This document shows, piece after piece, positions 5,191 to 64,000 of a stretch of 64,000 nucleotides of DNA (positions within the stretch are counted from its first letter, which is position 1; the number at the start of each line of letters is the position of its first letter). The notes under the pieces are model-generated. The model saw only the letters and a program-made list of their open reading frames with translations. It ran no database searches and was not told where the DNA came from. Both the position numbers and the translations under genes were made by a program. The stretch covers positions 6,316 through 70,315 of the forward strand of contig CAYNWV010000002.1 in assembly GCA_964401035.1 (NCBI GenBank), read 5' to 3'. This DNA comes from an uncultured Candidatus Saccharibacteria bacterium. GTDB taxonomy: Bacteria > Patescibacteriota > Saccharimonadia > Saccharimonadales > Saccharimonadaceae.

Positions 5191-6027
5191 ATGAAAAAGC
5201 ATAGCCTAACCCTTGCGACTAACCTCACTGTCCATTTTTGGGAATACCATCCTAATCAACCGCAAACTATCGTCTTTATTCACGGTTTTCGCGGCACTCA
5301 TCACGGGCTGGAACTTATCGCGCAGGCGCTGCCCGAATACCGCATCCTGATACCGGATCTGCCAGGTTTTGGCGAAAGCGACAAGCTACCTGACATGCAC
5401 ACACTCGAGAACTATGTGGCTTTTTTGCACACATTCATCCAGGAGGTTGTCGGTGATAGAGACGTCAATCTGCTCGGACATTCTTTTGGTAGTATCCTGG
5501 TGAGTCATTACGCGGCAACCTATCCCATGACACTTCACCGACTTATCCTGGTCAATCCAATCGGTGCACCGGCACTAAAAGGCGACCGCGCTATCATGAC
5601 ACAACTGGCAGTGTTTTATTACTGGTTAGGCAAGGTGTTACCGCATCCGCTCGACCGCACCTGGTTATCGAGCAAAGTCGTCACGATGATCATGAGCCGT
5701 GCCCTCGCAAAAACCAAAGACAAAGCGCTCCAGAAATTTATTGATACCCAACATCTGACGCATTTTAGTTCATTTGCGGACCCCAGGCAGCTCGCCGAAG
5801 CCTTCGATACATCGGTGCGCCACGATGTCAGTCAAGTCGCCGAGCGACTGACCGTACCAACCCTCATGATTGTCGGCGAAAAAGACGATATCACACCGCT
5901 CCGCAAAGAACATGAGCTCCACGGTCGGATCAAAAATTCAGCGATTGTCGTCATAAATAATGTCGGCCACCTCACGCATTACGAGACACCCCACGAAGTT
6001 GCTGACGCAATACGTGCGTTTCTCTAG
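5191..6027 (+). CDS. alpha/beta-fold hydrolase
   Basis: HGFRGTHHG oxyanion region, GHSFGS nucleophile elbow, C-terminal GHLTHYE. TGtTATCAT box lies 7 nt upstream of the ATG. Confidence 0.7.
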   Translation: MKKHSLTLATNLTVHFWEYHPNQPQTIVFIHGFRGTHHGLELIAQALPEYRILIPDLPGFGESDKLPDMHTLENYVAFLHTFIQEVVGDRDVNLLGHSFGSILVSHYAATYPMTLHRLILVNPIGAPALKGDRAIMTQLAVFYYWLGKVLPHPLDRTWLSSKVVTMIMSRALAKTKDKALQKFIDTQHLTHFSSFADPRQLAEAFDTSVRHDVSQVAERLTVPTLMIVGEKDDITPLRKEHELHGRIKNSAIVVINNVGHLTHYETPHEVADAIRAFL

Positions 6028-17768: not shown

Positions 17769-17972
17769 AAGTGTAGTCATGACGGTACTGGCGCCACAAG
17801 CGCTTTTCCACCGACAGACTACTTAACAACACTTGCGTTCGGTATCTGCCGCACGCTCACATCACGACTTCAGACGCCAATGATCGAGAGAAGCAAGCTC
17901 ATCGAGATCAGTCTTGTCGTTCATACTCACCACGCTTGCGACAAAAACCTGTAATCCATAGGAGAGTATGCT

Positions 17973-18215
17973 ATGAACGCACAACAAAATATAATCAACA
18001 GTCCAGTTACCGTGACGGCACTCGGTTTCGACCGAACCATGCACGCCTACCCAAAACGAATGGAATGGCAGGGTCAGACCTACCACTTCGTCGATGCCGG
18101 TATCCGTGTCCGTCGCGGCGAACGGGGTGGCTGCACGCTCACCATGAGCGACGGTGTCCGGAGTTTTTGTCTCCGTGAGCTGGCAGGCACCTGGACACTT
18201 GTCAGCGTCAGCTGA
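17973..18215 (+). CDS. hypothetical 80-aa soluble protein (GC-rich islet A)
   Basis: AGGAGAG RBS 6 nt upstream. Followed by its own intrinsic terminator. No family recognised. Confidence 0.6.
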   Translation: MNAQQNIINSPVTVTALGFDRTMHAYPKRMEWQGQTYHFVDAGIRVRRGERGGCTLTMSDGVRSFCLRELAGTWTLVSVS

Positions 18216-18224
18216 CACGAAGAA

Positions 18225-18250
18225 GCGTCGGAGTGATCCGGCGCTTTTTT
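18225..18250 (+). terminator. intrinsic terminator of the 80-aa gene
   Basis: GCGTCGGA-GTGA-TCCGGCGC (one G-U pair) followed by TTTTTT. Confidence 0.75.
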
Positions 18251-18264
18251 GCTGCTTTTTGTTA

Positions 18265-18293
18265 CCAAAGGAAAAGGGGTCGTGAGTGACCCC
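18265..18293 (-). terminator. intrinsic terminator of the minus-strand unit of islet A
   Basis: On the minus strand: GGGGTC-ACTCAC-GACCCC followed by TTTTCCTTT. Confidence 0.7.
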
Positions 18294-18353
18294 GAGCGTT
18301 ACCGCTCTGAGAGTCTTCACGACCCCGTTGTCGCTTCCCGCGACCCCTCTCCC

Positions 18354-18455
18354 TTACCTGAACAGTCGCTCGAACCAGTCGAGCAGTCTGTTCAGGAGAC
18401 TGTAGTACTCAGACGGACCGGTGTAGTCCGCCCATGGGTTGTCATCGTACCTCAT
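18354..18455 (-). CDS. hypothetical 33-aa peptide coupled to the upstream membrane protein
   Basis: ATGA stop/start overlap with the 122-aa gene. Translation MRYDDNPWADYTGPSEYYSLLNRLLDWFERLFR (C-terminal half amphipathic). Not in the ORF track because it is under 60 aa. Confidence 0.4.
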   Translation of the reverse strand: MRYDDNPWADYTGPSEYYSLLNRLLDWFERLFR

Positions 18456-18820
18456 CGCTCCTCCTCACGGAGTGCACGGTAGGGGTCAATGCCGATCTGG
18501 CGAAGACCATGTGCGATCTCGCGCAGCTCTTCCTCCTTACGGAGGCGAGCAACATCACGAGCGAACTCGTGATCATCTCGTCCCTCTCGCCAGAACCAGC
18601 GATCCTGGCGGTAGGCGAAGAACATGAAGAGCACGATGTGAATGGCCGCTAGTGACGTCACGAACGCAAGCACTGCCAGCAGGCATGCAAGCGCGACCAT
18701 GATCTCACCTGCGATACGAGCACTGCGCCAGTTGACCCGCGAGATGATGAACATCCCAGCGACAAAACTGACGTAGCATGCGACCGTAGCGGCCGTAACA
18801 ACAAACGCGAAGAGATCCAT
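18452..18820 (-). CDS. hypothetical 122-aa membrane protein (about 3 TM helices plus charged C-terminal helix), GC-rich islet A
   Basis: AAAGGAG RBS 8 nt upstream. Consensus promoter upstream. Hydrophobic segments FAFVVTAATVACYVSFVAGMFII, IMVALACLLAVLAFV, IHIVLFMFFAY. Confidence 0.7.
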   Translation of the reverse strand: MDLFAFVVTAATVACYVSFVAGMFIISRVNWRSARIAGEIMVALACLLAVLAFVTSLAAIHIVLFMFFAYRQDRWFWREGRDDHEFARDVARLRKEEELREIAHGLRQIGIDPYRALREEER

Positions 18821-18896
18821 CGCTGAATCTCCTTTCTAACTGGGGAAGGGTTGGGAAGGAGCAAGCTTTGATGTGATATCGCAGCCTACTATTCTC

Positions 18897-18925
18897 ATTA
18901 TAGCACTTTCATGTGTTTGTGTCAA
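18897..18925 (-). promoter_or_regulatory. consensus sigma70-type promoter of the minus-strand unit of islet A
   Basis: On the minus strand: TTGACA-17 nt-TGcTATAAT (both hexamers perfect, with TG extension). Confidence 0.75.
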
Positions 18926-18996
18926 TGCTCTTATGTTTATATTGGCCTGGACAACAGAGGCGGGGTATGCTATAGTCAAGCTATCACTATCAATGT

Positions 18997-24032: not shown

Positions 24033-24088
24033 TCCGCCACCACTGTTCTGTGATTGACTTTTCTAAGCTTTAGTGATATAATGTTTCG

Positions 24089-25687
24089 GTGACAAATTTC
24101 GCTCCGGCCTCTGATAGACGAGCCGATACCTACGCCGATTCTCCCGCTTCGCCGAGCGAAGATTTTCCTATGGCACCAGATTCCGTACGTGCGGCCTACC
24201 AATACTATTGGCAGCGCACACAAACTGCTCGCGACACCGCACGCCAAGACGAGCATCGTATGACGACAGTCAATACCCTGCTTCACGACTTTGGCCAAGA
24301 CGACCTCAACAAAGATATCTATACAGCCGCCATGCTCGGGCCGTTTATAGATCGTACTGACGACTATTTGACGTCAAGGAATGCTTTACGTGCGCTCAAG
24401 CAATACTCGACGTATTCTAGCACTACTGCAGACGAATCTGCCTACGTGCTCGGTATTCTAGGTGATCGACGAGCGACGCGTGGTTATTGGAATCGAAGTT
24501 TGTGCGCACTGCATGCGGGCGATACGGAGCTCCTGCCACTCCTCCTCGATCAGTCAAATCTAATGCCGGTATCAGATGAGCTATGGATAAAAACTGATCT
24601 ACTCAAGGGCGTTGATACTCAAACAGCCGTCGATTATTTCGTTGCACTCGATGAGCATGTGCAAGATGTGAATATTGAATCTTTGCTCATCAGTGCTGTC
24701 GAAGAGTATGTCTGGCTCACTTCTGATGAGCCATCGAACGACTCACAGACTTTTCAGCACGTTCACAAGACTGAAGTTTTCTTGGCACCGATCTGTGAGT
24801 TTATCGGTTTTGATGGCCTGGCTTCGGCACTACGCAGTGAGTCCCTGAAGCGTCGGCTGATTAATTCTGGTAATGATATGTACATCAATGATGCAGCAAA
24901 ACTCTTGCAGTCACTAGGCGACGACACGACGGTTGAACAACAGACGCAGCGCATGATTGAGGCGGCACTGGGCGATAATCTGCACGAAGCTGTTATCACC
25001 AATAACGGCAAGCACGATATTCTCATCGGCGAAGGCATCTGTATGCCTGAAACACGCCGGATTACCTGGCGACGCAAATCACTTGGTTCACTAGCCTACA
25101 AACTGTACGAGGATAAGTACTCGGAACAAACAGGGTCACAGCACCCGATGGATATTGTTGCCGCAACCGTCGTTGTAGATAGCGAAGATGAAGTAGCCGA
25201 TATTGTTGCGCATATTGTAGCGCGTATCCAGACCGACTCTCGAACAACACCGAAACCGTCTCCTAGCCGAGAGCAAGCACTGCATATTACGGGACGGCGA
25301 GAGTATATCGAGGCTATCAAGGCATCATTAGAGCAAGCCGGTATCGATACGTCATCGAGAACACTCGACGAAAAACCAGTTGAAACCAAAGCTTTCCATG
25401 TCACGAAGTTTACCTTCATCTATCAAGAATGGCAGCAGCCGATCATGCCAGTAGAGGTTATGGTCACCACATCGCGAGATCGTCGCGAAGCCCGAGTCGG
25501 CGTGGCAGCACATGTACTCTATAAACTGGGCGTCAAACCAACAGCTGGCATAAAGACAGCACCACTTGTGGGTGCTTTTCATAATTTGCGTTCTCGTCGT
25601 GACTGGCTAGGGCACAACCACTTGACAGACAAAAGCCGCGCAAGAGGCAGAGAATTTGGCGACTTAATTGACGCGATACCGCTATAG
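24089..25687 (+). CDS. divergent RelA/SpoT homologue (HD-like plus synthetase-like domains, no TGS/ACT)
   Basis: Alignment by eye to Rel: WRRKSLGSLAYKL (GRPKHIYSIYRKM), MDIVAATVVV (FDLIAIRCVM), VEVMVTTSRDRREARVGVAAHVLYK ([25 protein letters not shown]), AAMLGPFIDRTDD (GFLHDVVEDTD). GTG start at 24089; an alternative ATG is at 24170. Confidence 0.6.
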   Translation: MTNFAPASDRRADTYADSPASPSEDFPMAPDSVRAAYQYYWQRTQTARDTARQDEHRMTTVNTLLHDFGQDDLNKDIYTAAMLGPFIDRTDDYLTSRNALRALKQYSTYSSTTADESAYVLGILGDRRATRGYWNRSLCALHAGDTELLPLLLDQSNLMPVSDELWIKTDLLKGVDTQTAVDYFVALDEHVQDVNIESLLISAVEEYVWLTSDEPSNDSQTFQHVHKTEVFLAPICEFIGFDGLASALRSESLKRRLINSGNDMYINDAAKLLQSLGDDTTVEQQTQRMIEAALGDNLHEAVITNNGKHDILIGEGICMPETRRITWRRKSLGSLAYKLYEDKYSEQTGSQHPMDIVAATVVVDSEDEVADIVAHIVARIQTDSRTTPKPSPSREQALHITGRREYIEAIKASLEQAGIDTSSRTLDEKPVETKAFHVTKFTFIYQEWQQPIMPVEVMVTTSRDRREARVGVAAHVLYKLGVKPTAGIKTAPLVGAFHNLRSRRDWLGHNHLTDKSRARGREFGDLIDAIPL

Positions 25688-25704: not shown

Positions 25705-25740
25705 AGAAGCAGCCGCCCGGATGGGCGGCTTTTTGCTTCA
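25705..25740. terminator. bidirectional intrinsic terminator
   Basis: AGCCGCCC-GGAT-GGGCGGCT with a T-run downstream and an A-rich run upstream. Confidence 0.8.
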
Positions 25741-26376
25741 CTGTAGAGAAGTCGTCGACCAGAACCGGGCGGAATGTCCTCAGGACGATTCTTTTCTGGC
25801 GGAGAGTCTGATCGACACTCCGCCCGGTCTGGAAGATCTAGTAGTGTCGCGGAAAGGTGCGGGCGCTTCTTGTGACCCAGCCCGCACAGTGGGTCAGGGT
25901 CTGCCCAGTTTCAGGCGGCTCATCAGAGCTCCTTTCGTTCCGTGGGTGCACGGGGTCGCGTTCAGAAGCCGGCCGCGGTGATCTCGATCGCTGAGATCTG
26001 AGTGATCGCGGTGCACGGAGCACCGCGAGCGCGCGTGACGGACTGTCCCATGAGATTCTTCCTTTCGTCGGGGGCAACCTTGCCCCTGGTGGGTGATCGC
26101 GCACAAGTGCGCAGGAGTTATCTGCAACCAAGTAGCGGTTTTCGATAGCCCTTGAGAGACGAGGCCTCTCTTTATGGCACTGAGGTGTCAACTCCAAGTT
26201 CCAGTCAGTGACTACTCGCAGCGATACCGGTTCGAAACTGGTCAAACTGGTGTCGCTGCGAATAGGGTGGTTCTCTATACAGTGAAGGTTCGTGCGATAG
26301 GAGCATAGGCTCAACTTTTCGCTTGTTGTTGATAGCACGCCGTTTTTTTCACGACGTCAAGACATTTTTCACGATA

Positions 26377-26405
26377 TTGCAATCAGACGCTAGATCTGCT
26401 ACAAT
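26377..26405 (+). promoter_or_regulatory. rplJ-rplL promoter
   Basis: TTGCAA-17 nt-TGcTACAAT. Confidence 0.65.
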
Positions 26406-31641: not shown

Positions 31642-33093
31642 ATGCAGCATCGCATCACCGATTTTCTCGCATACCGATGGAGATACATCCTCGGATACAC
31701 TATCGCTTTGTCGGCGGTTGCCGTCATGTTGACCGTTGCGGCGCTCTTCGTCCCTCATGAACTACGCCAGGGTGAATTAGATTCAGCGGTCACGAGTGGC
31801 TCGCTCGGTACGACAACCATGGTGCCCAATGCTGTGGTTAACCTGCCGTATCATTTGCTGCAGAAGTTTTCATTTGTCCTTTTCGGCGTCTCGACTCTGA
31901 CTATAAAACTCCCCTCGATTCTTCTGGGCGCCTTGACTGCACTGGGTGTTTTTTTACTGTTAAAAACGTGGTTTCACACTCGTGTTGCGATCCTGGGAGT
32001 CGCTCTGACGATCATCACGTCGCAGTTCTTGTTTCTATCGCAGGATGGTACGCCATTAGTGGTCTTTCCTTTTGTTGCTACTTGGCTATTGTTCGTCGCG
32101 ACCTATGTCACTCGTCGCAAAATCTTTGGTCTGCTCTGGAAAGTTCTGACGTGTCTCGCTATGGCAATGAGCCTGTATACGCCGCTTGGTATTTATTTGG
32201 TGCTTGTCATGCTCGTCGTCGCACTGTTTCATCCGCATATCCGCTACCTTATCCGGCGCTTTAACCCCTATAAATTATTGATTGCTGTTTTGCTATCACT
32301 CGGAGCAGTGGTGCCGCTCATCTACGCCATTTACCTGGATCATACTATCTTAACGACGCTCCTCGGTATTCCAACAAATGGCCTGAATCTGCCGGAGAAC
32401 TTTATACTCGTCGTCAAAGAAACATTTGGGATCGCATCATTGTCATCGAGCTATCTTATTCGACCCCTGTATCCGCTTGGCGCCGCAATTCTCATGTTTG
32501 TTGGTCTGTATCATCTGCTCACCAAAAAACACACCGCTCGTAGTACGATCACATTAGCGTGGGGTGTTGTCCTCAGCGTGCTGGTTATCCTGAACCCCGA
32601 CTATGTCACCTATCTCTACCCGATCTCAGTGATTCTGGTGGCATACGGCATCACATACATGTTTAGTAGTTGGTATCGCCTATTTCCGCACAACCCCTAC
32701 GCCAGAGTTGCTGGGTTTATACCTCTGGCCATCCTCATTGTCGCCATGATTAGCTCTGGTGTATCAAGATACGTCAATACCTATCTGTATAATCCAGCTA
32801 TTCTCGCGAACTATACCAGCGATCTCAGGCTGCTTCGTACAACATTACAGACCGAAAAAGCAGGGAACCATGGCGCAACATTGATTGTCGATCAAAATAA
32901 CCTGGCATTTTACCGACTCGTCAGCAAATATGATCAGCGAATTGATGTCACTGCCGATCCAAGTGCAACTGGCAAGCTCGTCTTAGCGAGTCGTTCAATG
33001 AAAAAAGCCGGTGTCGAGCCTCATGTTATTGTCGTGAATGCGCGTGCAAATGACGCTGACCGATTCTACGTCTACAAAACTGCGCCTCAGTAG
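31642..33093 (+). CDS. polytopic integral membrane protein, possibly a GT-C (ArnT/PMT-like) glycosyltransferase
   Basis: 483 aa with about 11-12 hydrophobic helices and a C-terminal soluble domain. The function is a guess from topology only. Confidence 0.35.
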   Translation: MQHRITDFLAYRWRYILGYTIALSAVAVMLTVAALFVPHELRQGELDSAVTSGSLGTTTMVPNAVVNLPYHLLQKFSFVLFGVSTLTIKLPSILLGALTALGVFLLLKTWFHTRVAILGVALTIITSQFLFLSQDGTPLVVFPFVATWLLFVATYVTRRKIFGLLWKVLTCLAMAMSLYTPLGIYLVLVMLVVALFHPHIRYLIRRFNPYKLLIAVLLSLGAVVPLIYAIYLDHTILTTLLGIPTNGLNLPENFILVVKETFGIASLSSSYLIRPLYPLGAAILMFVGLYHLLTKKHTARSTITLAWGVVLSVLVILNPDYVTYLYPISVILVAYGITYMFSSWYRLFPHNPYARVAGFIPLAILIVAMISSGVSRYVNTYLYNPAILANYTSDLRLLRTTLQTEKAGNHGATLIVDQNNLAFYRLVSKYDQRIDVTADPSATGKLVLASRSMKKAGVEPHVIVVNARANDADRFYVYKTAPQ

Positions 33094-33128: not shown

Positions 33129-33419
33129 ATGGCCCTAGACCAGATCAAGATGTTAAATGACCTAAGAAAAGCGCAAAAAGATCTCGCCAAAGAGATCGTC
33201 GAAGTCGAAGCCGGTGACGGTGCTGTTGTCGTACAGATCACTGGCGAGTTGAAAGTCAAATCAATCAAAATCGAACCAGACATGGTCGATCTCGACGATA
33301 TCCACGAGCTCGAGCATTGGCTGGAAATTGCTATCCGCGATGGTATGCAAAAAGCCCAGGAAATCGCCGCCGAGAAGATGAAGCCGCTAATGGGCGGACT
33401 CGGTAGCCTCGGCCTGTAA
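33129..33419 (+). CDS. ybaB: nucleoid-associated protein YbaB/EbfC
   Basis: 96 aa. MLNDLRKAQKDLAKEI...VKSIKIEP...LE..I..A...A. Conserved position before recR. Confidence 0.85.
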   Translation: MALDQIKMLNDLRKAQKDLAKEIVEVEAGDGAVVVQITGELKVKSIKIEPDMVDLDDIHELEHWLEIAIRDGMQKAQEIAAEKMKPLMGGLGSLGL

Positions 33420-33427
33420 TTAGCCCC

Positions 33428-34054
33428 ATGGCACGACTTTTGCCCAGCGCACTCTTAAAAGCGATCGACGAGCTCGGTCGCTTGCCTGGTGTGGGAGCGC
33501 GAACAGCCGAACGCTATGCTTATTTTTTACTCAAAGCCGATGAAAAAGCCGTACGGTCACTGGCCGACAGCCTGGCATTTTTACACGATGGTGTGAAAAT
33601 CTGTCCAAAAACCTTTGCGCTGATCGACCCAGACGAGACCGTGTCGCCACTCTACACTGACCGCGATCGTAACAAAAAACTCGTGGCTGTCGTCGAGGAG
33701 CCGCTCGATATCGTTGCACTGGAGCGCACCGGACAGTTCGTGGGCACCTACCATGTCCTAGGTGGTGTGATATCGCCAATCGACGGAATTGGCCCCGAAA
33801 AACTCCACCTACCAGAACTTGTGCAGCGCCTACGCGAGGATGAGGTCGAAGAATTGATTATCGCTACTAACGCCAGCGTAGAAGGTGAGTCGACCGCACT
33901 ATTTATCGAGCGGCACATCCGCGAGGCCAAACTCGACCTCACGATCAGCCGCTTGGCACGCGGTATTCCCGTGGGTGTTGACCTAGAATACGCCGACCAG
34001 ATCACGCTTGGCCACGCCCTAGCGGGTCGCAAAAAGCTTGAGCATATTGACTAA
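33428..34054 (+). CDS. recR: recombination protein RecR (zinc-finger cysteines mostly absent)
   Basis: LPGVGARTAERYAYFLL HhH, Toprim VVEEPLDIVALERTGQFVGTYHVLGG and EGESTALFI. Only one Cys (KICPKT) where C-x2-C...C-x2-C is expected. Confidence 0.9.
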   Translation: MARLLPSALLKAIDELGRLPGVGARTAERYAYFLLKADEKAVRSLADSLAFLHDGVKICPKTFALIDPDETVSPLYTDRDRNKKLVAVVEEPLDIVALERTGQFVGTYHVLGGVISPIDGIGPEKLHLPELVQRLREDEVEELIIATNASVEGESTALFIERHIREAKLDLTISRLARGIPVGVDLEYADQITLGHALAGRKKLEHID

Positions 34055-34075
34055 TATAGATATATTTGCTATAAT
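34047..34075 (+). promoter_or_regulatory. consensus promoter of a non-coding transcript (islet D)
   Basis: TTGACT-17 nt-TGcTATAAT, overlapping the recR stop codon. Confidence 0.65.
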
Positions 34076-34081
34076 ATAACG

Positions 34082-34334
34082 ATGGAATAGTGACGGCTTG
34101 CCATCCGGTACGTAAGCGAGTCGATTCGCTCGGCCACGTAGATCGTATTCACGGCTAAGGGTAGTCACCGCTGACTATACCGAATAGCACGCGTACAGCG
34201 CACCCTCCAAGTGTCGCTACAGGCGCAGCGCGAGCATCCGCTCGCAATTTGTCACTGCCACCTAGGAGGGGCGAACTAACCATTCGCCCCTCCACATACA
34301 CCAAAACAGCACCCCTTTAACGGGGGCTGTTTTG
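34082..34334 (+). ncRNA. candidate ~250-nt structured ncRNA of unknown class
   Basis: Bounded by the promoter above and by hairpins GGAGGGGCGAA/TTCGCCCCTCC (34265-93) and CAGCaCCCC/GGGGGCTG plus TTTTG (34303-34). Longest internal reading frame is about 22 codons without an RBS. Several internal helices (AGCGA/TCGCT, GCGAGC/GCTCGC). Confidence 0.45.
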
Positions 34335-34340
34335 CTATTT

Positions 34341-34421
34341 CACCTCCAGACTATTTCAACTGCTGAAATAGTCTGGAGGTGCCAGGTGCACGAAGTTTCT
34401 CGAAAGAAACACCATGCACCT
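34341..34421 (-). terminator. two long perfect hairpins in the 3' region of the islet D membrane-protein gene
   Basis: 18-bp perfect stem CACCTCCAGACTATTTCA/TGAAATAGTCTGGAGGTG (34341-81). Nested hairpin AGGTGCA..GTTTCT-CGAA-AGAAAC..TGCACCT (34384-421). Confidence 0.5.
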
Positions 34422-34431
34422 GTCGCGCGCC

Positions 34432-34746
34432 TCAGAAGTTGATGCCGATACTCGGCAACCACTTCGGCAGGAACGAGAAGATCAACCAGAAGAGGCCGAA
34501 CATCACCGGAACGATGAACGCCCAGATGGCGATGGCGACCTTCCAGTTGGCGATCAGGCTGCCGCCGACGATCAGACCGAGGCCGAGACCGGCCAGCGTG
34601 ATCGTCATCGGCAGCGGTAGACCACCGAAGAACAGCGCCGCGACGATCACAATGGCCGGGATGACACCCGACATCATGATCCATGTTCCGACATTCAGCC
34701 GGCGCTCGTCACGATCAACAGTGACGAAGTCTGCAGTAGTGCTCAT
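34432..34746 (-). CDS. hypothetical 104-aa polytopic membrane protein (GC-rich islet D)
   Basis: AGGAGAAAA RBS adjacent to the ATG. About 3 hydrophobic helices. By my hand count 85 of 104 codons end in G/C, all Phe codons are TTC, and all but one Ile codon are ATC. Confidence 0.7.
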   Translation of the reverse strand: MSTTADFVTVDRDERRLNVGTWIMMSGVIPAIVIVAALFFGGLPLPMTITLAGLGLGLIVGGSLIANWKVAIAIWAFIVPVMFGLFWLIFSFLPKWLPSIGINF

Positions 34747-34874
34747 TTTTCTCCTGTAGCGTAGTGGGCTCGACTCTGTTGTAGAACCCGCATCAACGAC
34801 CTGGTAGTGCCAGGCTACTGATACAGGTTCTACTTCTTAAGGCGCGATTGAGTCTTGTTAGACTCAATAACTCT

Positions 34875-34903
34875 ATCTTAGCACAATCGTTATGTTTTGT
34901 CAA
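34875..34903 (-). promoter_or_regulatory. promoter of the islet D membrane-protein gene
   Basis: On the minus strand: TTGACA-17 nt-TGcTAAGAT. Predicts a ~115-nt leader containing TTGAGTCT-AACA-AGACTCAA and the GTAGAACC...GGTTCTAC helix. Confidence 0.6.
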
Positions 34904-34979
34904 TCTAATTATGCTTTCCTCGAATCTCATCTACACGACTTATATCTGTAACGGCAGGCAGTTTGTTACAATAGTACAT

Positions 34980-35990
34980 ATGTACGATATTGTGAAGCAG
35001 CGGATTGATGCCGCGCAGAGTATAGTGGTGATACAACCTGAAAACCCAGATGGCGACAGCCTGGGGAGTTCGCTGGCGCTCGAAGAGATCCTGGGCGACC
35101 TAGGAAAAGACGTCACGCTGTACTGTGCTATCGATATGCCGAAATACCTGCGCTACATCGACGGCTGGGATAGGGTCACCAATGAGTGGTCCGGGCAGTC
35201 CGATCTAGCACTGATCGTGGATACGGCGGCCGAAGCCTTGCTCCAAAAAGCCCTCTCGACACCTGGTATCCGCCACTTCTTCGAATCACACCCAGTCATC
35301 GTCCTCGATCACCACGGCGAACTCGACGAAGACGAACCGACCAACGATCTGCCGTTCCCGCACGAGTTTATATTGAGCAGTAGTGCCGCGAGCACCAGCG
35401 AGTTGATTTGGGAGATTGCCCAGGCACATGACTGGCCCATCAACGCGCAGGCAGCCACCAGCATGTATAGCAGTATCGCAGCTGACACTTTAGGCATGAC
35501 GACTCAGGGTGCTACCGCACAAACCTTTGCAGTCGTGGCTGATCTGGTAAAATCCGGTGCAAAACCCTATGAAATCGAAACCAAGCGGCGCGAGTACATG
35601 AAAAAACCAGCCGATATCTTGGCTTACAAAGCCCAGCTGATCGAACGCATCGAATACCACCTGGACGGCAAATTAGCCACCGTGCACATACCGTGGGAAG
35701 ACATCCAGGAATACAGCGACCGCTACAACCCGAGTATCCTGGTACTCGATGAAATGCGTCTAGTGGAGGGCGTAGAGGTCGCCTGCGCTATAAAAACCTA
35801 TCCTGATGGCAAGTTGACCGGCAAACTGCGCTGCAATACACCAGTCGCCAGTACAATTGCTGGCTACTTTGGCGGTGGTGGCCATAGTTATGCAGCGGGA
35901 TTTAAAGTCAACGAAAGCCTGGACATCATACTGCCAGAGGTACTAACAGCAACCGAGAAAGCCCTGCGCGATGGCACTGAAACTGCATAA
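34980..35990 (+). CDS. nrnA: DHH/DHHA1 phosphoesterase (NrnA-like oligoribonuclease / pAp phosphatase)
   Basis: PDGDSLGSSLAL, VLDHHGE, GGGGHSYAAGF. ATG 34980 lies 7 nt after TGtTACAAT. The TTG at 34848 in the ORF track would read through the divergent promoter. Confidence 0.8.
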   Translation: MYDIVKQRIDAAQSIVVIQPENPDGDSLGSSLALEEILGDLGKDVTLYCAIDMPKYLRYIDGWDRVTNEWSGQSDLALIVDTAAEALLQKALSTPGIRHFFESHPVIVLDHHGELDEDEPTNDLPFPHEFILSSSAASTSELIWEIAQAHDWPINAQAATSMYSSIAADTLGMTTQGATAQTFAVVADLVKSGAKPYEIETKRREYMKKPADILAYKAQLIERIEYHLDGKLATVHIPWEDIQEYSDRYNPSILVLDEMRLVEGVEVACAIKTYPDGKLTGKLRCNTPVASTIAGYFGGGGHSYAAGFKVNESLDIILPEVLTATEKALRDGTETA

Positions 35991-37545
35991 TACACTCACA
36001 AAAAAAGTTGAGGAGTTCACGCCGCTGACCGCTGGCAAAGTAACACTCTATACCTGTGGACCAACTGTCTACGACTATCCACACGTCGGCAACTGGGCAT
36101 CGTATGTCTACTGGGACACGCTCGTCCGCACCCTGATCGCTCATGGCTATGCGGTCGAACGCGTTATGAATATCACTGATGTCGGCCATCTGGTAAGCGA
36201 TGCTGATGATGGCGAGGACAAGCTCGAAAAAGGCGCCCGGCGGGAGGGCAAGACTGCTTGGGAAATCGCTGAATTTTATGCCGAAGATTTCCTAAACGGT
36301 ATGGAAAAACTGGGTCTGATCCCGCCAGAACATATCACCAAAGCGACTGATTTTATCGATCAACAAATTGAGCTGATCCGTGTCCTCAAAGAAAAGGGGC
36401 ACACTTACCAGACGACCGATGGAATCTACTTTGACACCTCGACATTTCCGGCCTATGCGGACTTCGCGCATCTCGATCTCGCAGCGCAGCGCGCCGGTGC
36501 CAGGGTCGAAGCCAACGATGAAAAGCGCCAACCGTGGGATTTTGCACTCTGGAAGTTCACGCCTGTCGGTCAGAAGCGCGACATGGAATGGGAGACACCG
36601 GATGATTTGCTAGAATTACCGAGAGCCGAGGAGCCTGTCGACTCTGACGAAACATCTGCAGCCCGAGCTTCTGCCGATGCGTACTCGACAGAAGCGCGGC
36701 GCGAAGCCGTTTCGGATGGGTCGCAGGCGAGTCCGGCGGGACAAACTGTCATGGGATTTCCCGGCTGGCATCTTGAATGCAGCGCTATGGCTATGAGCAT
36801 CCTGGGGCCGACCATCGATATCCACACCGGCGGCATCGACCATATACCCGTGCACCATACCAACGAAGTTGCCCAAAGCGAAGCTGCTAGCGGTCAGAAG
36901 TTTGCAAACTATTGGCTCCACAACAACCACCTAAAAATTGACGGTAGTAAAATCAGCAAATCGCTTGGCAACGGCTATACTCTCCAGGATCTCGAAGAAA
37001 AAGGTTTCTCACCGCTAGATCTACGCATGTTTATTTTGCAAAGCCAGTTTGTCAGCGAAGGTAATTTTACCTGGGAGAATCTAGAGGCGGCAAAAAATCG
37101 GCTGCATAACTGGCGAAACTATGCAGCACTACGACACCAGACACATGACCGATTACAGAGTGATGATGACAAAAAGACAGTCAGCCATGTCACATTTGAC
37201 AGCGCACCAGACGCCATCAAGACTGCTCTAGCCGATAACCTCAACACACCCGAAGCTTTGCACGCAGTCGATGCGGCCTTTCAGACACTTGACGGCGCCG
37301 AACTAGACACTGTCAACCGCGGTAGTTTCGTGGCTTTTATTGACAATATCGATGAGCTGCTGGGGCTGCAGCTAGCCACTTCGACGCCAGATATCAGCGA
37401 TGACCAAAAACGCCTCATCCTGGAGCGCCAGCGCGCCCGCGATGCCAAAGACTGGCAGCGCTCAGACGCGATTCGCGATGAATTATTACAAAGCGACATA
37501 GCGCTCAACGACACGCAATACGGAACGGTCTGGAGTTATCGCTAA
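35971..37545 (+). CDS. cysS: cysteine--tRNA ligase with a ~50-aa internal insertion
   Basis: HVGN (YPHVGNWASY), GFPGWHLECSAM, KISKSLGN. Confidence 0.95.
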   Translation: MALKLHNTLTKKVEEFTPLTAGKVTLYTCGPTVYDYPHVGNWASYVYWDTLVRTLIAHGYAVERVMNITDVGHLVSDADDGEDKLEKGARREGKTAWEIAEFYAEDFLNGMEKLGLIPPEHITKATDFIDQQIELIRVLKEKGHTYQTTDGIYFDTSTFPAYADFAHLDLAAQRAGARVEANDEKRQPWDFALWKFTPVGQKRDMEWETPDDLLELPRAEEPVDSDETSAARASADAYSTEARREAVSDGSQASPAGQTVMGFPGWHLECSAMAMSILGPTIDIHTGGIDHIPVHHTNEVAQSEAASGQKFANYWLHNNHLKIDGSKISKSLGNGYTLQDLEEKGFSPLDLRMFILQSQFVSEGNFTWENLEAAKNRLHNWRNYAALRHQTHDRLQSDDDKKTVSHVTFDSAPDAIKTALADNLNTPEALHAVDAAFQTLDGAELDTVNRGSFVAFIDNIDELLGLQLATSTPDISDDQKRLILERQRARDAKDWQRSDAIRDELLQSDIALNDTQYGTVWSYR

Positions 37546-60784: not shown

Positions 60785-60826
60785 ACCGTCATTATACCAC
60801 CAGAGTACGCTACAATAGACTAAGCA

Positions 60827-63800
60827 ATGAACTATAGAGAGCGGTATAAGCAGCTAAATACTCGTCAGAAACAAGCTGTCGACACGATCGATGGCCCATT
60901 ACTCGTGATCGCGGGACCCGGCACCGGCAAGACCGAGCTGCTCAGTATGCGAACTGCCACTATCTTAGATCGCACGGATACACTGCCAGAAAATATCTTG
61001 CTGCTGACATTTACTGACAGCGGCGCCAATGCTATGCGTGAGCGCCTGGCTAGCATCATCGGTCCCGATGCCTACCGCGTTGCTATTCACACGTTTCATA
61101 GTTTTGGTTCGGAAATTATCAATCAACACCGCGAATATTTTTATAATGGCGCCAGTCTGCAGCCAGCCGATGAAATAACCAGTCGTGAAATACTGACCAA
61201 AATTTTCGATGAGCTGGACTACGCCAATGTACTGGCCGCAAAACACAATGGAAAATACGCCCACCTAGAAGATGCGCTGCGGACAATTTCCGAATTAAAA
61301 AACAGCGGCTTAACGAGTGATGAGCTGGTGACAATTCTTGATGCCAACCAAGCCGTGCTCGATGCCGTCGAAGCCGACTTGTCAGAGGTTTTTCAGGCAA
61401 AAATCAGCACAACCATGCTCGCGTCACTCGTGCCACTCGCTGAGCGCGTGGCTGCACTCGCACAGCCGTCATTGCCACCCGGCATTACACCGTTGTCCAA
61501 TATTCTAGCGCTCAGTATGGCGCACGCTTTTGACGAAGCTGTCCAAACTGGCAAGACAAATGCTATCACTGTCTGGCGCAATCAATGGATGGAAAAAAAT
61601 CACGACGGCATACAGGTATTTAAGGACCGCAAACGTATCACGAAACTGCGCGCCATCAGCTATATCTACTACTTGTATCTCACGCGCATGACCGAAGCTA
61701 GCCTGTATGACTACGACGATATGATCCTCAATGTTGTTCACGCGCTCGAAACACATGACGACCTGCGCTACAACCTCCAGGAGCGCTACCAGTATATTTT
61801 GGTCGACGAATTTCAAGATACGAACCTGGCGCAGCTACGTATTTTGTTTGACCTGACGAACAACCCAGCGCACGAAGGTCGGCCAAATATCATGGCGGTC
61901 GGTGACGACGACCAGGCAATTTATAGTTTTCAGGGCGCTGATATCAACAATATTCACCGGTTTCGCGATCAATACCCCGCACATGAAATTGTCGTTCTAA
62001 CCGACAATTATCGCTCTGGCCAAGCTGTCCTATCCCAGGCTCGTTCGGTGATTTTACAGGGGCAGGGCAGACTAGAAGAAACTATCGACTTCGTCGACAA
62101 GACGCTGACGCCACATAGTGGGGAAGCTTCGGTTGCGCTATGGCAGTTCGATACGCCGCTCGATGAACGCGCTTGGATTGCCCGCGACATCCAGGAGCAG
62201 CTCCAGCGAGGCGTTGCTCCCGAATCAATTACAGTCTTAGCGCGTCGTCACCAAGAGCTCATTGCCCTGGTACCATACCTCGAGCGGCTGGGTATTGCTA
62301 TCAACTACGAACGTCGTGACAATGTACTCGAAAATGAAGCCGTGCGATTACTATTTCTGATGTCAGCTATTTTGACGGCGCTGTGGGGTGATGATAATTC
62401 GGTAGCCGACAGTTTGCTGCCAGAGCTATTATCTCAACCAATTTATAATTTTAGCGCTGAAGCAATCTGGCGACTCAGCCTCGGCGCTCACCGCAACAAT
62501 CAGCGCTTGTTCGAGGCCATGCTACTAACTCCTGAGTTTACGCCACTTGCTACGTGGTTGCTCGAGCTTCGTAAACTCGCCGACAGCGCCTATTTGGAGC
62601 AGATGCTCGACACGCTCATTGGTGCTCCCGATACGCCAGTTATAGCGAGTTTTCGCTCGCCGCTCTATGACTATTACTTTAGCCCAGAGCGCTTAGCGGG
62701 GGAACCTTCCCGCTATCTGGAATACCTCGAAGCCATCCGCACCATTCGCGCCAAGTTACGTGACTATAGCGCTAGCGAGATTTTATATATTCAAGATTTT
62801 TTGGACTTTGTGCGACTGTATGAAGAACTTGGTTCGAGTATTACGACGCTCCGACGCCATAGCGACAAGCTAGGGGGCAGTGTCAATCTGATGACCGCGC
62901 ATAAATCAAAAGGTCTCGAGTTCGATCATGTCTATATTATGAATGCTGTTGATTCGGTCTGGGGCGAACGCGTCCGAACCCGTAGCCGCTTGATCGGCTA
63001 CCCAGAAAACCTGCAGATTGCGCCGGCCGGCGATAGCTATGATGAACGGTTGCGACTGTTTTTTGTCGCTATGACACGCGCCAAAAAGCAGCTATCGATT
63101 TCGTACTCAACCAGTGACGAAGTCGGTAAATCGACCCTGCTCGCGAGCTTTCTCGCCGACGATACCCTCAGTGTACAGATCCCAGCCACGCCTTCGATTG
63201 AGCACGAAACACAAGTGCTCACGACCGATTGGCGTAGCCTACATACGGCACCGCCAACGGCATCGATGCGTGAGTTATTGGCACCGACGCTCGAAACCTA
63301 CAAACTTTCGGCTACACATCTCGGTACTTTCATCGACGTCACCCGCGGTGGACCAGCCAACTTCTTAATGCGTAACCTTCTCCGGTTCCCACAGGCAAAA
63401 TCACCCGAAGCCAGTTACGGCACTGCTGTCCATGCTACGTTGCAACGTGCGCACAATACTTTTACGGCCAATGGTATTCGGCGACCCGTCGAAGATATTT
63501 TGCATGATTTTGAACACGAGCTCGAACGTCAACATCTGCAGCCCGACGACGAAAAACAGTTCACAAAGCGCGGTATCGATGCGCTGACAAAATTCCTCGA
63601 AGTCGAGTATGGAAATTTCTCAAGAACCCAAAAAACTGAGCTAGGTTTTGGCGAGCAAGGGGTTGTATTAGACGGTGCCAAGCTCACTGGTTCGCTCGAT
63701 CTCGTCACGATCAATGACAAATCGATTCGTGTGGTTGATTACAAAACTGGCGCACCCAGCCGCGAGTGGCGGGGTAGTACCGAATACGAAAAGATCAAAC

Positions 63801-64000
63801 TGCACAAATATCGCCAGCAGCTGATGTTTTACCAGCTACTGATCGAGCATTCACGCGATTTTGCCAAATACACCTTTGATGGTGCAGTCCTACAGTTTGT
63901 CGAGCCCGACCGCCAGGGCAAGCTCCACCGGCTTGAGACATCATTTTCGACCGATGAACTAGTGTATTTTCAGCAGCTCATTGTGGCTGTCTGGCGCCGA
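60827..64000 (+). CDS. UvrD/PcrA-like superfamily 1 helicase with C-terminal PD-(D/E)XK nuclease domain (AddA-like), 3' end outside window
   Basis: Not in the ORF track because no stop lies within the window. Motifs AGPGTGKT, VDEFQD, GDDDQAIYSFQGA, TDNYRS, MTAHKSKGLEF, VAMTRAK. C-terminal GSLDLVT...IRVVDYKTG...YRQQLMFY. cGcTACAAT lies 10 nt upstream of the ATG. Confidence 0.85.
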   Translation, partial: MNYRERYKQLNTRQKQAVDTIDGPLLVIAGPGTGKTELLSMRTATILDRTDTLPENILLLTFTDSGANAMRERLASIIGPDAYRVAIHTFHSFGSEIINQHREYFYNGASLQPADEITSREILTKIFDELDYANVLAAKHNGKYAHLEDALRTISELKNSGLTSDELVTILDANQAVLDAVEADLSEVFQAKISTTMLASLVPLAERVAALAQPSLPPGITPLSNILALSMAHAFDEAVQTGKTNAITVWRNQWMEKNHDGIQVFKDRKRITKLRAISYIYYLYLTRMTEASLYDYDDMILNVVHALETHDDLRYNLQERYQYILVDEFQDTNLAQLRILFDLTNNPAHEGRPNIMAVGDDDQAIYSFQGADINNIHRFRDQYPAHEIVVLTDNYRSGQAVLSQARSVILQGQGRLEETIDFVDKTLTPHSGEASVALWQFDTPLDERAWIARDIQEQLQRGVAPESITVLARRHQELIALVPYLERLGIAINYERRDNVLENEAVRLLFLMSAILTALWGDDNSVADSLLPELLSQPIYNFSAEAIWRLSLGAHRNNQRLFEAMLLTPEFTPLATWLLELRKLADSAYLEQMLDTLIGAPDTPVIASFRSPLYDYYFSPERLAGEPSRYLEYLEAIRTIRAKLRDYSASEILYIQDFLDFVRLYEELGSSITTLRRHSDKLGGSVNLMTAHKSKGLEFDHVYIMNAVDSVWGERVRTRSRLIGYPENLQIAPAGDSYDERLRLFFVAMTRAKKQLSISYSTSDEVGKSTLLASFLADDTLSVQIPATPSIEHETQVLTTDWRSLHTAPPTASMRELLAPTLETYKLSATHLGTFIDVTRGGPANFLMRNLLRFPQAKSPEASYGTAVHATLQRAHNTFTANGIRRPVEDILHDFEHELERQHLQPDDEKQFTKRGIDALTKFLEVEYGNFSRTQKTELGFGEQGVVLDGAKLTGSLDLVTINDKSIRVVDYKTGAPSREWRGSTEYEKIKLHKYRQQLMFYQLLIEHSRDFAKYTFDGAVLQFVEPDRQGKLHRLETSFSTDELVYFQQLIVAVWRR

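Follow-up and report, generated by a model that had tools for sequence, protein, structure and literature searches.

A strain-specific insert in the recR-DHH gap of a Saccharibacteria genome, read as two transcription units converging on one bidirectional terminator

Islet D is a strain-specific insert of 0.9 kb in a Saccharibacteria (TM7) genome, where it fills the gap that separates recR from an nrnA-like gene of the DHH family; it is analyzed here within a stretch of 64 kb that we call the window. Our main reading, to which we assign a probability of roughly 55%, is that the islet represents strain-specific cargo in a hypervariable slot, and that this cargo comprises two independent units converging on one bidirectional terminator. 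The minus-strand unit would be a cassette that carries all it needs to express a rare membrane protein with three helices and about 100 aa, and the plus-strand unit is probably a real but evolutionarily young transcription unit.

The slot itself lies within a gene string conserved in Saccharibacteria, GT(PMT_2)-ybaB-recR-slot-DHH(nrnA-like)-cysS, and the genes adjoining the islet, named by Pfam, are housekeeping genes. Across a comparison set of 162 related Saccharibacteria loci, gap lengths were counted in the 108 that carry recR and DHH on the same strand, revealing gaps from 0 to about 2.9 kb (up to 2888 nt) that hold unrelated cargo; the gap is at most 100 nt in 43 of these loci and exceeds 400 nt in 59, and in some relatives the two genes overlap. 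Cargo recurs at this junction among Saccharibacteria, which makes it a handy place to seek strain-specific surface or membrane functions in these episymbionts. We count the islet as accessory because this gap is hypervariable, because the codon usage of its membrane gene is anomalous and because that gene is patchily distributed. The preliminary description had suggested that the module is foreign, and an accessory or foreign origin is supported in part. With a GC content of 0.561 the islet ranks among the highest 0.9% of 750-nt windows, although the window mean, 0.51, lies a mere 5 points lower. No direct repeats were found around it and no match to phage or plasmid DNA, such that neither repeats, nor similarity to phages, plasmids or viral contigs, nor the neighboring genes mark it as a mobile element, an integron cassette or a prophage remnant. 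The preliminary description had likened the islet's architecture to that of an islet A; no sequence similar to islet D was found elsewhere in the 64 kb. A search of metagenomes by RecR returned no closer relative above 78% identity, and the read set SRR12712865 contains an identical contig.

The minus strand encodes a protein of 104 aa (34432-34746) with a strong ribosome-binding site, AGGAG, just as first described. An AF2 model, whose pLDDT of 68 is too low to support a fold comparison, places helices at residues 3-40, 45-66 and 68-100, and the hydrophobic stretch spans approximately residues 19 to 95 in this protein and in its one ortholog. The product would presumably be inserted into the cell membrane. 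That ortholog (P0002; 100 aa, 43% identity, E 6e-12) occupies the same recR-DHH site in L082/L083, two loci of a more distant Saccharibacteria lineage whose DHH and CysS proteins are 64-66% identical to those of the window, while the gene is missing from the closer relatives L002, L003 and L007. Exhaustive phmmer and profile searches of about 15 billion proteins recovered no further homolog, no relatives were found in viral contigs or by tblastn against phages, and neither protein has a match above the curated cut-off in Pfam, NCBIfam, PHROGs, PADLOC or PDB sequences; PHO4 came closest (E 0.034), scoring 13.6 bits where 33.7 would be required. In L082/L083 a co-directional ORF of 108 aa, likewise an orphan on homolog search, and an HD hydrolase gene are present in place of a convergent RNA. 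A candidate 126-aa ORF antisense to the membrane gene (34379-34759, plus strand) was rejected as a by-product of high GC3, its frame being broken in L082; the sense frame is the sole frame open in both orthologs.

Expression signals surround this gene on both sides. Its predicted promoter, TTGACA-17-TGcTAAGAT (34875-34903, minus strand; 10/12 matches, extended -10), is present as had been described and aligns with a 12/12 promoter at L082 4840-4868. From it would follow a structured 5' leader of about 122 nt (34747-34868, minus strand; fold z -5.3 to -5.7), whose order is a 5'-terminal hairpin (34847-34868, formed by the palindrome 34847-34855/34860-34868), the motif GCGCCUU, a long hairpin (34781-34833), the motif ACAACAGAGUYGA and then a free AGGAG ribosome-binding site (34751-34755); the palindrome and the long-range helix noted earlier are thus both there. 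The consensus of the leader with L082 holds 27 pairs, 4 of them compensatory and none broken, and a covariance model built on it found no other instance in the 162 loci or the window. GCGCCUU and ACAACAGAGUYGA are themselves conserved between window and L082, and as single-stranded motifs they suggest an extra factor-binding or regulatory role. The leader includes the motif ACAACAGAG.

Beyond the stop codon lie two long hairpins, which had been taken as perfect: both exist, but only hairpin B (34341-34381, minus strand) has a perfect stem of 18 bp (CACCUCC.../...GGAGGUG), hairpin A (34383-34422, minus strand; 18 bp) reaching 83% pairing. Over 53 nt, hairpin B shares 83% identity with L082 5354-5406; there TTTTT follows the stem, which would provide the gene with its own terminator, whereas in the window the T-run is missing. 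Hairpin A has a counterpart at the same position in the ortholog locus, with a conserved base (CAGGTGC/ACCTGG) and 2 compensatory pairs; taken together, the 3' hairpins of window and L082 hold 30 pairs, 2 compensatory, and the 3' region of the mRNA folds at z -11.4. The pattern of the conserved hairpins retrieved no further family members from metagenome and viral contigs. The mRNA would begin directly with a stem-loop, continue with a second long hairpin and then expose its AGGAG ribosome-binding site, and the terminal hairpins may stabilize it against 5'-end-dependent and 3'-exonucleolytic decay. Because an ortholog at the same site shares promoter, leader, 3' hairpins and GC3, we judge from these sequence features that the minus-strand unit is a real gene of an orphan family with two known members, its conservation extending to two lineages only. 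Both members of this three-helix family, the only ones known among about 15 billion proteins, come as whole promoter-leader-CDS-hairpin cassettes.

Codon usage sets the gene apart further. The preliminary description had counted, by hand, 85 of 104 codons ending in G or C, every Phe codon as TTC and all but one Ile codon as ATC, and this count is exact (GC3 0.82; TTC 9, TTT 0; ATC 12, ATT 1). The difference from the genome that it proposed is real: this GC3 stands 4.8 SD above 649 coding windows of the same length, the maximum of which is 0.73, and compares with a background near 0.55 and with 0.42-0.61 in nearby genes. Since Phe in ribosomal-protein genes is TTT in 69% of cases, the high GC3 is not expression bias. 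One explanation would be that the membrane cassette, perhaps with the whole islet, was gained recently and horizontally from a donor of high GC, for instance an actinobacterial host or a phage of that host, as opposed to an old Saccharibacteria gene with high GC3 held by selection. Recent gain is consistent with the distance between a GC3 of 0.82 and a background of 0.55, with codon choices that run counter to those of the genome (TTC 9/9 against 35% genome-wide), with the patchy distribution of the gene, with its location in a cargo hot spot and with the GC3 of 0.72 in the neighboring orphan ORF of L082. We nonetheless consider it possible but somewhat unlikely: no homolog exists beyond two Saccharibacteria lineages in the protein search, nor in phages, plasmids or viral contigs; the cassette promoter is the host genome's own consensus; and flanking direct repeats are lacking. 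Moreover, the two orthologs sit at the same chromosomal site, are only 43% identical and both have GC3 near 0.8 (0.79 in L082), which is better fitted by long residence with selection or a gene-specific bias than by two recent transfers. Our main reading of strain-specific cargo does not account for the high GC3 kept in two diverged orthologs, and GC3 near 0.8 in genomes near 0.55 is explained neither by expression bias nor by simple recent transfer.

On the plus strand, a sigma-70-type promoter, TTGACT-17-TGcTATAAT (34047-34075; 11/12 matches, extended -10), overlaps the recR stop as first described, recR ending at 34054. Scanning the 64 kb for this class (at least 10/12 matches with TG) revealed 8 matches, 7 of them intergenic; one of these is the promoter at 34047 itself, and the other six precede a gene or tRNA by 7-129 nt. 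The class is specific to intergenic DNA and stands above chance. It would drive a non-coding RNA of about 255 nt (34082-34340, plus strand), its extent deduced from promoter and terminator positions, which would also form the 3' UTR of the recR operon. The terminator is an intrinsic one (34296-34340, stem 34302-34334) with an A-tract before and a T-tract after, giving tails of TTTTG on the plus and TTTTGG on the minus strand; the earlier proposal of a plus-unit terminator with TTTTG that might be bidirectional agrees with this hairpin, which is canonical in both directions. It would end the transcripts of the recR operon and the plus unit from one side and that of the membrane gene from the other, and so insulate the convergent units. 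With both transcripts and their ends placed by consensus motifs, we infer that the terminator is the sole region in which they would overlap.

We regard it as plausible that the plus unit is transcribed from its promoter to its terminator. No ORF with start codon and ribosome-binding site occurs in the RNA region, in agreement with the preliminary description, and codon periodicity is absent (p 0.30); the transcript would start with AUG GAA UAG, which leaves no usable ORF, and this mini-ORF is probably coincidental. The many helices that had been attributed to the RNA did not survive comparison with background. The full-length RNA folds at z of about -5, but this derives from the terminator and from a perfect 11-bp GC-rich hairpin, GGAGGGGCGAA/TTCGCCCCTCC (34265-34293), whereas the 181-nt body (34082-34262) has z -1.5, its antisense strand -1.8 and the background -0.5 +/- 1.0. 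The body therefore shows no folding energy beyond composition-matched controls of the kind that would mark a structured functional ncRNA, and the antisense strand folds just as well. The exact pattern of the 11-bp hairpin is absent from viral contigs.

Known RNA families and relatives of the RNA were likewise not encountered. The Rfam 15 gathering scan of the window returned only 3 tRNAs and an L10 leader, no plus-strand match appeared in 34082-34300 when 33900-35000 was scanned at E<=10, and ARAGORN found no tmRNA, such that the RNA matches no housekeeping family in Rfam, an identity that would have spoken against the original ncRNA proposal. By blastn, nhmmer and covariance model, no homologs were found in the 162 related loci, the ortholog locus included, and none in phages or plasmids; these searches of public collections covered related loci and exact patterns, and distant homologs may exist elsewhere in genomes. 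A literature search on ncRNAs of Saccharibacteria brought up nothing of relevance. Two further candidates were set aside: a housekeeping RNA at a syntenic position, which is absent downstream of recR in the 162 loci, and a decayed remnant of one of the genes found here in L002 and L082 (the HD hydrolase gene or the 108-aa gene), for which there is neither tblastn signal nor codon periodicity.

The demonstrable functional elements of the plus unit are its promoter and terminator only. Because the body shows no sign of selected structure, coding capacity or conservation, we consider the transcript more likely to be lineage-specific, and possibly weakly functional or without function, than to be a partner dedicated to the membrane gene. 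More generally, near-consensus promoter-to-terminator units can occur without conservation or excess structure, which counsels caution in calling ncRNAs from anatomy alone. A non-coding stretch of 280 nt with a near-perfect promoter is unusual in such a compact genome, and for that reason the RNA, although not conserved, may have a function. Within it, a small hairpin (34197-34218, plus strand) carries a 7-nt apical loop, CCUCCAA (34204-34210), containing an anti-Shine-Dalgarno-like pentamer; CCUCC in an apical loop is a feature of some regulatory sRNAs and counts against a non-functional view, the functional meaning of the loop being something we infer only.

These features would also suit a functional trans-acting sRNA, embedded in the 3' UTR with its own promoter in the end of recR as in DapZ and MicL, whose loop pairs with the Shine-Dalgarno regions of targets as do the C-rich loops of RsaE/RoxS. 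The strong promoter over the recR stop with a Rho-independent terminator after it, the want of an ORF, the stable 3' hairpin ahead of the terminator and a loop predicted by partition function to have its CCUCC unpaired with probability 0.99 all point that way. We hold this to be unlikely, given that no homolog appears in the 162 related loci or Rfam, body structure does not rise above background, a single CCUCC could well arise by chance in 259 nt, and no target was identified, the ribosome-binding region of the adjacent gene pairing, by inspection, over only about 4 bp.

A second functional reading, that of a type-I-toxin-antitoxin-like module put forward in the preliminary description, would make the 104-aa protein a toxin and the convergent plus RNA its antisense antitoxin acting via the overlapping terminator, as in par (Fst/RNAII) and TxpA/RatA. 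In its favor, convergence on the shared bidirectional terminator would yield about 40 nt of cis-complementarity with complementary loops, and a hydrophobic protein, a heavily structured mRNA and an accessory setting would all be in keeping. The comparison of loci, however, speaks against it: in L082/L083, the sole ortholog locus, there is neither convergent promoter nor RNA, the membrane gene having its own hairpin-plus-TTTTT terminator and a co-directional ORF next to it, and none of the 162 loci yields a match to the covariance model of the RNA, so that co-occurrence of toxin gene and antitoxin RNA is not seen. Outside the terminator, complementarity between RNA body and membrane mRNA is no longer than in shuffles, with longest runs of 7 nt (Watson-Crick) and 11 nt (with G-U) that were reached in 199 and 142 of 200 shuffles, respectively, and a duplex energy of z -1.3. 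Classical type I toxins are shorter than 60 aa and have one helix; the proteins here, of 104 and 100 aa with three predicted helices, are not small single-helix peptides of this kind, the size difference having been pointed out from the start, and no toxin match was obtained with PADLOC or Pfam. The membrane gene and the plus transcript are thus not a demonstrable toxin-antitoxin pair, and we rate this module as very unlikely.

Also very unlikely would be an excludon-like or attenuator arrangement, in which the plus terminator is conditional and read-through from both the recR operon and the plus promoter runs antisense over the entire membrane gene into DHH-cysS, repressing the former and feeding the downstream operon. 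In its support, recR and DHH lie within 100 nt of each other in 43/108 relatives, some overlapping, and are there probably co-transcribed; the terminator stem is bulged and just 4 U follow it; and no further plus-strand terminator precedes DHH. Yet a conserved promoter belongs to DHH itself and is positioned such that translation would start without a leader, in the window (TGTTACAAT at 34964-34972, ATG at 34980) and in L082 alike, no riboswitch, T-box or other attenuator family matches, an alternative anti-terminator pairing is not evident, and conservation is lacking upstream of the terminator.

Speculatively, and we think improbably, the islet could encode a new regulatory pair or riboregulator. 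In one version (a), the plus RNA would be a newly arisen antisense or anti-Shine-Dalgarno sRNA that controls membrane toxins or effectors of a new, three-helix class in a CPR bacterium living as an episymbiont; in the other (b), the two-hairpin leader with its invariant GCGCCUU and ACAACAGAGUYGA would be a new cis-regulatory RNA, a ligand or protein sensor for the orphan membrane protein. Were version (b) true, selection acting on the mRNA would lie behind the unusual and conserved GC3.

Islet D resembles several known systems in part. Type I toxin-antitoxin loci with convergent 3' overlap include par of pAD1 (Fst/RNAII) and txpA/ratA and bsrG/SR4 of Bacillus subtilis, and the islet shares with them a gene for a hydrophobic protein that faces a non-coding RNA of some 200-250 nt, convergent on or across a shared bidirectional terminator, in an accessory setting. 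It departs from them in the size of its protein (104 aa, three helices), in a predicted overlap that comprises the terminator hairpin only with no extra complementarity, and in the absence of the RNA from the gene's only ortholog locus. RsaE/RoxS and FsrA are C-rich-loop sRNAs of Gram-positive bacteria, and like them the plus RNA shows CCUCC in an apical loop, but it has a single such motif and neither sequence or structural homology nor predicted targets. DapZ and MicL are sRNAs embedded in 3' UTRs and driven by a promoter of their own, which lies within the upstream gene or at its end, and they are conserved and Hfq-dependent with defined seeds and targets. The predicted plus unit is like them in that its promoter reaches into the end of the preceding CDS (recR), it shares the operon's intrinsic terminator and it has no ORF, whereas it lacks conservation and an identified target. 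Stem-loops at the ends of mRNAs act as 5' stabilizers in the ompA, aprE and ermC leaders and as 3' stabilizers in, for example, the cry1Aa terminator. The membrane mRNA parallels the former with a stem-loop at or within 1-2 nt of its predicted 5' end (34868) and the latter with long stable hairpins after its stop codon, and these 5' and 3' hairpins, kept with compensatory changes between two orthologs, would presumably stabilize it in a similar way.

The 925-nt gap between recR and the DHH gene (34055-34979) lies within a gene order, GT-ybaB-recR-DHH-cysS, that is conserved among related loci and here comprises a PMT_2 glycosyltransferase gene (GT; Pfam; 31642-33093), ybaB (33129-33419), recR (33428-34054), the DHH/DHHA1 (nrnA-like) gene (34980-35990) and cysS (35971-37545), all on the plus strand. 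Comparing 80 genome and 80 metagenome loci retrieved via RecR, we found that the gap ranged from -8 to 2888 nt in the 108 loci with both genes, measuring at most 100 nt in 43 (some overlapping), 101-400 nt in 6, 401-1000 nt in 26 and more than 1000 nt in 33 (59 of 108 above 400 nt). The cargo is unrelated between lineages (including an HD/YfbR-like hydrolase, assorted small membrane proteins, 146-240-aa proteins and, in oral Nanosynbacter, a 388-aa surface protein); its genes are frequently encoded on the opposite strand, each with a promoter and terminator of its own. One layout recurs: recR, a terminator, an opposite-strand cargo gene under its own promoter, and finally DHH, likewise separately promoted. 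Across Saccharibacteria, this junction is a hypervariable cargo hot spot. Its occupant in this Saccharibacteria (TM7) genome (GC 51%), islet D, has a GC of 0.561, which ranks among the highest 0.9% of 750-nt windows though just 5 points over the mean; an identical contig occurs in Logan assembly SRR12712865. We read the islet, with a probability of roughly 0.55, as a stable-mRNA membrane cassette and a young or incidental plus-strand transcript, which would be independent neighbours in the cargo slot whose convergence gives them a common terminator.

The minus promoter (34903-34875, minus strand; 10/12, extended -10), taken with its spacer as TTGACAAAACATAACGATTGTGCTAAGAT (34875-34904), matches at 24 of 26 nt (92%) the promoter of the 388-aa surface-protein gene, an unrelated gene that occupies the corresponding place 5' of DHH in distant genomes (L067, L075, L077-L080 and related oral Nanosynbacter, e.g., L077 4890-4915), and the spacer may itself be conserved, as a promoter or operator element. 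In other recR-DHH gaps (L021 4040-4160; L072 and L069), two minus-strand cargo genes that otherwise differ share, at 88% identity, 97 nt of promoter and leader including a GC-rich hairpin, CCCCGCAGCCCTGCGGGG, and this segment is another portable promoter-leader module in the slot. DHH itself starts apparently leaderless, a TG-extended -10 (TGTTACAAT) lying 7-8 nt 5' of its ATG at 34980 (34964-34982), as also in L082 (4794-4815, reverse strand). A 532-aa gene has a similarly leaderless apparent start with the same 7-8-nt spacing (TATAAT ending at 24082, GTG at 24089; region 24054-24091).

On the minus strand lies a real and rare gene cassette. Its 104-aa membrane-protein ORF (34432-34746, minus strand; AGGAG 4 nt 5' of the ATG) encodes a charged N-terminus, a hydrophobic stretch from residue ~19 to 95 and an invariant C-terminal LPxWLPxxGINF, and AF2 models the protein, with low confidence (pLDDT 68), as three helices. 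An antisense 126-aa ORF over the gene was dismissed as a high-GC3 artefact, since the sense frame alone is open in both orthologs. When 5.8 billion cluster representatives were searched by word index, the protein matched only itself, and it had no match in Pfam, NCBIfam, PHROGs, PADLOC or PDB; exhaustive phmmer against 1.84 billion representatives added a single genuine homolog, P0002 (100 aa; E 6e-12 at 43% identity), with two other matches discounted as repetitive large proteins, and a profile of the two sequences recruited no additional members. P0002 is encoded at the same recR-DHH site, divergently from DHH-cysS, in assemblies L082 and L083 of a genome more distant from the window (DHH 64%, CysS 66% identity), and L002, L003 and L007 are nearer (DHH 74-84%) yet without the gene, so that the cassette, known from two lineages only, is patchily distributed. 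Next to the membrane gene, on its 3' side and in the same direction, the L082 locus further has a 108-aa ORF under a promoter of its own (5468-5918; GC3 0.72; an orphan among 5.8 billion clusters) followed by an HD/YfbR-like hydrolase gene overlapping the recR stop, both absent from the window.

Codon usage in the membrane gene is anomalous, and the hand count in the preliminary description was exact: 85 of 104 codons end in G/C (TTC 9, TTT 0, ATC 12, ATT 1). Against 649 coding windows of equal length (104 codons; mean 0.554 +/- 0.055, maximum 0.73), its GC3 of 0.82 stands 4.8 SD above the mean, and because TTT is preferred over TTC in the whole genome (65%) and in ribosomal-protein genes (69%), the bias is not the usual high-expression signature. 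Such composition could reflect recent transfer of the cassette from a high-GC donor, a reading we find rather doubtful given that no homolog occurs outside Saccharibacteria, that the promoter is of native type and that GC3 was kept through 57% protein divergence (0.82 in the window, 0.79 in L082; neighbouring genes 0.42-0.61); the competing origin is long residence under selection for high GC3.

Aligning the two loci revealed non-coding conservation at least equal to that of the CDS, and the L082 promoter scores 12/12. Both leaders run from a stem-loop at the predicted +1 through GCGCCUU, a long hairpin of 16-24 bp and ACAACAGAGUYGA to a free RBS (window: palindrome 34847-34868, long helix 34781-34833, minus strand), with the two named motifs invariant. 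In their consensus fold, 4 of 27 pairs show compensatory double changes and none is broken, each leader alone folds at z -4.7 to -5.7, and a covariance model found no further copy in 162 loci or the window. Of the two 3' hairpins (minus strand), hairpin A (34383-34422; 18 bp, 83% paired) stands 3' of the stop codon in both loci with a conserved base and 2 compensatory pairs, and hairpin B, a perfect 18-bp stem, is 83% identical over 53 nt; the 3' region folds at z -11.4. By analogy with established 5' and 3' stabilisers, the cassette would act as a classical stable-mRNA expression unit, with a strong promoter, 5'-terminal stem-loop, exposed RBS and 3' hairpins. In hairpin B (34341-34381; L082 5366-5406), a 16S-3'-end-like CACCUCC pairs with a perfect Shine-Dalgarno GGAGGUG, and because its sequence, beyond its pairing, is kept between orthologs with 43% identical proteins, it hints at a function other than termination.

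In L082, TTTTT directly follows hairpin B, which is the membrane gene's terminator; in the window AAATAGC takes the place of the T-run and the bidirectional terminator comes next (stem 34302-34334, both strands, A and T runs on its flanks). We consider an excludon-like read-through regulator very unlikely. The preliminary description had suggested a possible type I TA-like pair; L082 and L083 have no convergent promoter or RNA facing the membrane gene, and outside the common terminator, the longest Watson-Crick run between the plus RNA and the membrane mRNA is 7 nt, equalled or exceeded in 199 of 200 shuffles, with a duplex energy of z -1.3, and we give such a pair very little credence indeed. 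We favour instead the independent convergent units.

The plus promoter (34047-34075, plus strand; 11/12, extended -10) is probably real, because its motif class (at least 10/12 with TG) concentrates in intergenic DNA (7 of 8 copies in 64 kb), mostly upstream of genes or tRNAs (6 of those 7 lie 7-129 nt 5' of one, the remaining copy being 34047), and on this sequence evidence the unit is probably transcribed. The predicted start at 34082, 7 nt past the -10, reads AUG GAA UAG, placing an AUG at +1 as in the apparent leaderless start of DHH; the RNA has no plausible ORF in any frame and no three-base periodicity (p 0.30). The full-length RNA folds at z ~-5, an excess stability that comes from an 11-bp hairpin (34265-34293) and the terminator, and the 181-nt body (34082-34262) reaches z -1.5 (antisense strand -1.8) against a background of -0.48 +/- 1.04 in 64 windows. 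The 'many helices' first described here were thus the one part of a largely correct observation that failed, its promoters, terminator, hairpins, leader and ORF all being found in place; the interpretation given with it is supported in part, since the islet is accessory and its codon usage anomalous, and neither a TA module nor a structured ncRNA is demonstrable. No Rfam family matched at the gathering threshold, nor with the cut-off relaxed to E<=10, and blastn, nhmmer and a covariance model on the MFE structure likewise came up empty across 162 related loci (~0.9 Mb). The RNA had no match in phage and plasmid collections, and its 11-bp hairpin pattern no copy in viral contigs, public collections being searched via related loci and exact patterns only. 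Descent from the HD or 108-aa genes that take this place in L002 and L082 was rejected for want of tblastn similarity.

Elsewhere in the window, a second convergent islet without sequence similarity to islet D (17862-18976) pairs a 122-aa membrane ORF (18452-18820, minus strand; GC3 0.65; 12/12 promoter at 18925-18897, minus strand), weakly matching PHROG 944 'membrane protein' and the NCBIfam MAG0130 membrane family, with a converging 80-aa ORF (17973-18215, plus strand) running up to a long terminator hairpin (18218-18251). Some 640 nt without a credible ORF (25731-26376; GC up to 63%), flanked by a bidirectional terminator (25711-25730) and the L10-leader promoter (26377-26405), have no Rfam match at E<=1, fold in parts at z -3 to -3.9 on both strands, and are a candidate RNA or decayed gene. 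Over another ~3 kb (60800-64000), neither strand has an ORF above 103 aa and Rfam gives no match at E<=0.1, which is unusual in a compact genome of this kind; pseudogenisation, a fault in the assembly or a large RNA that escaped annotation could account for it.

Within the plus RNA of islet D, the CCUCCAA apical loop (34204-34210; unpaired probability 0.99) is a suggestive detail consistent with a trans-acting anti-SD sRNA, which we judge improbable. With no sign of selection on the RNA body, we treat the plus unit as a young or incidental transcript. It doubles as the recR 3' UTR, an arrangement that resembles DapZ and MicL, 3'-UTR sRNAs with internal promoters.
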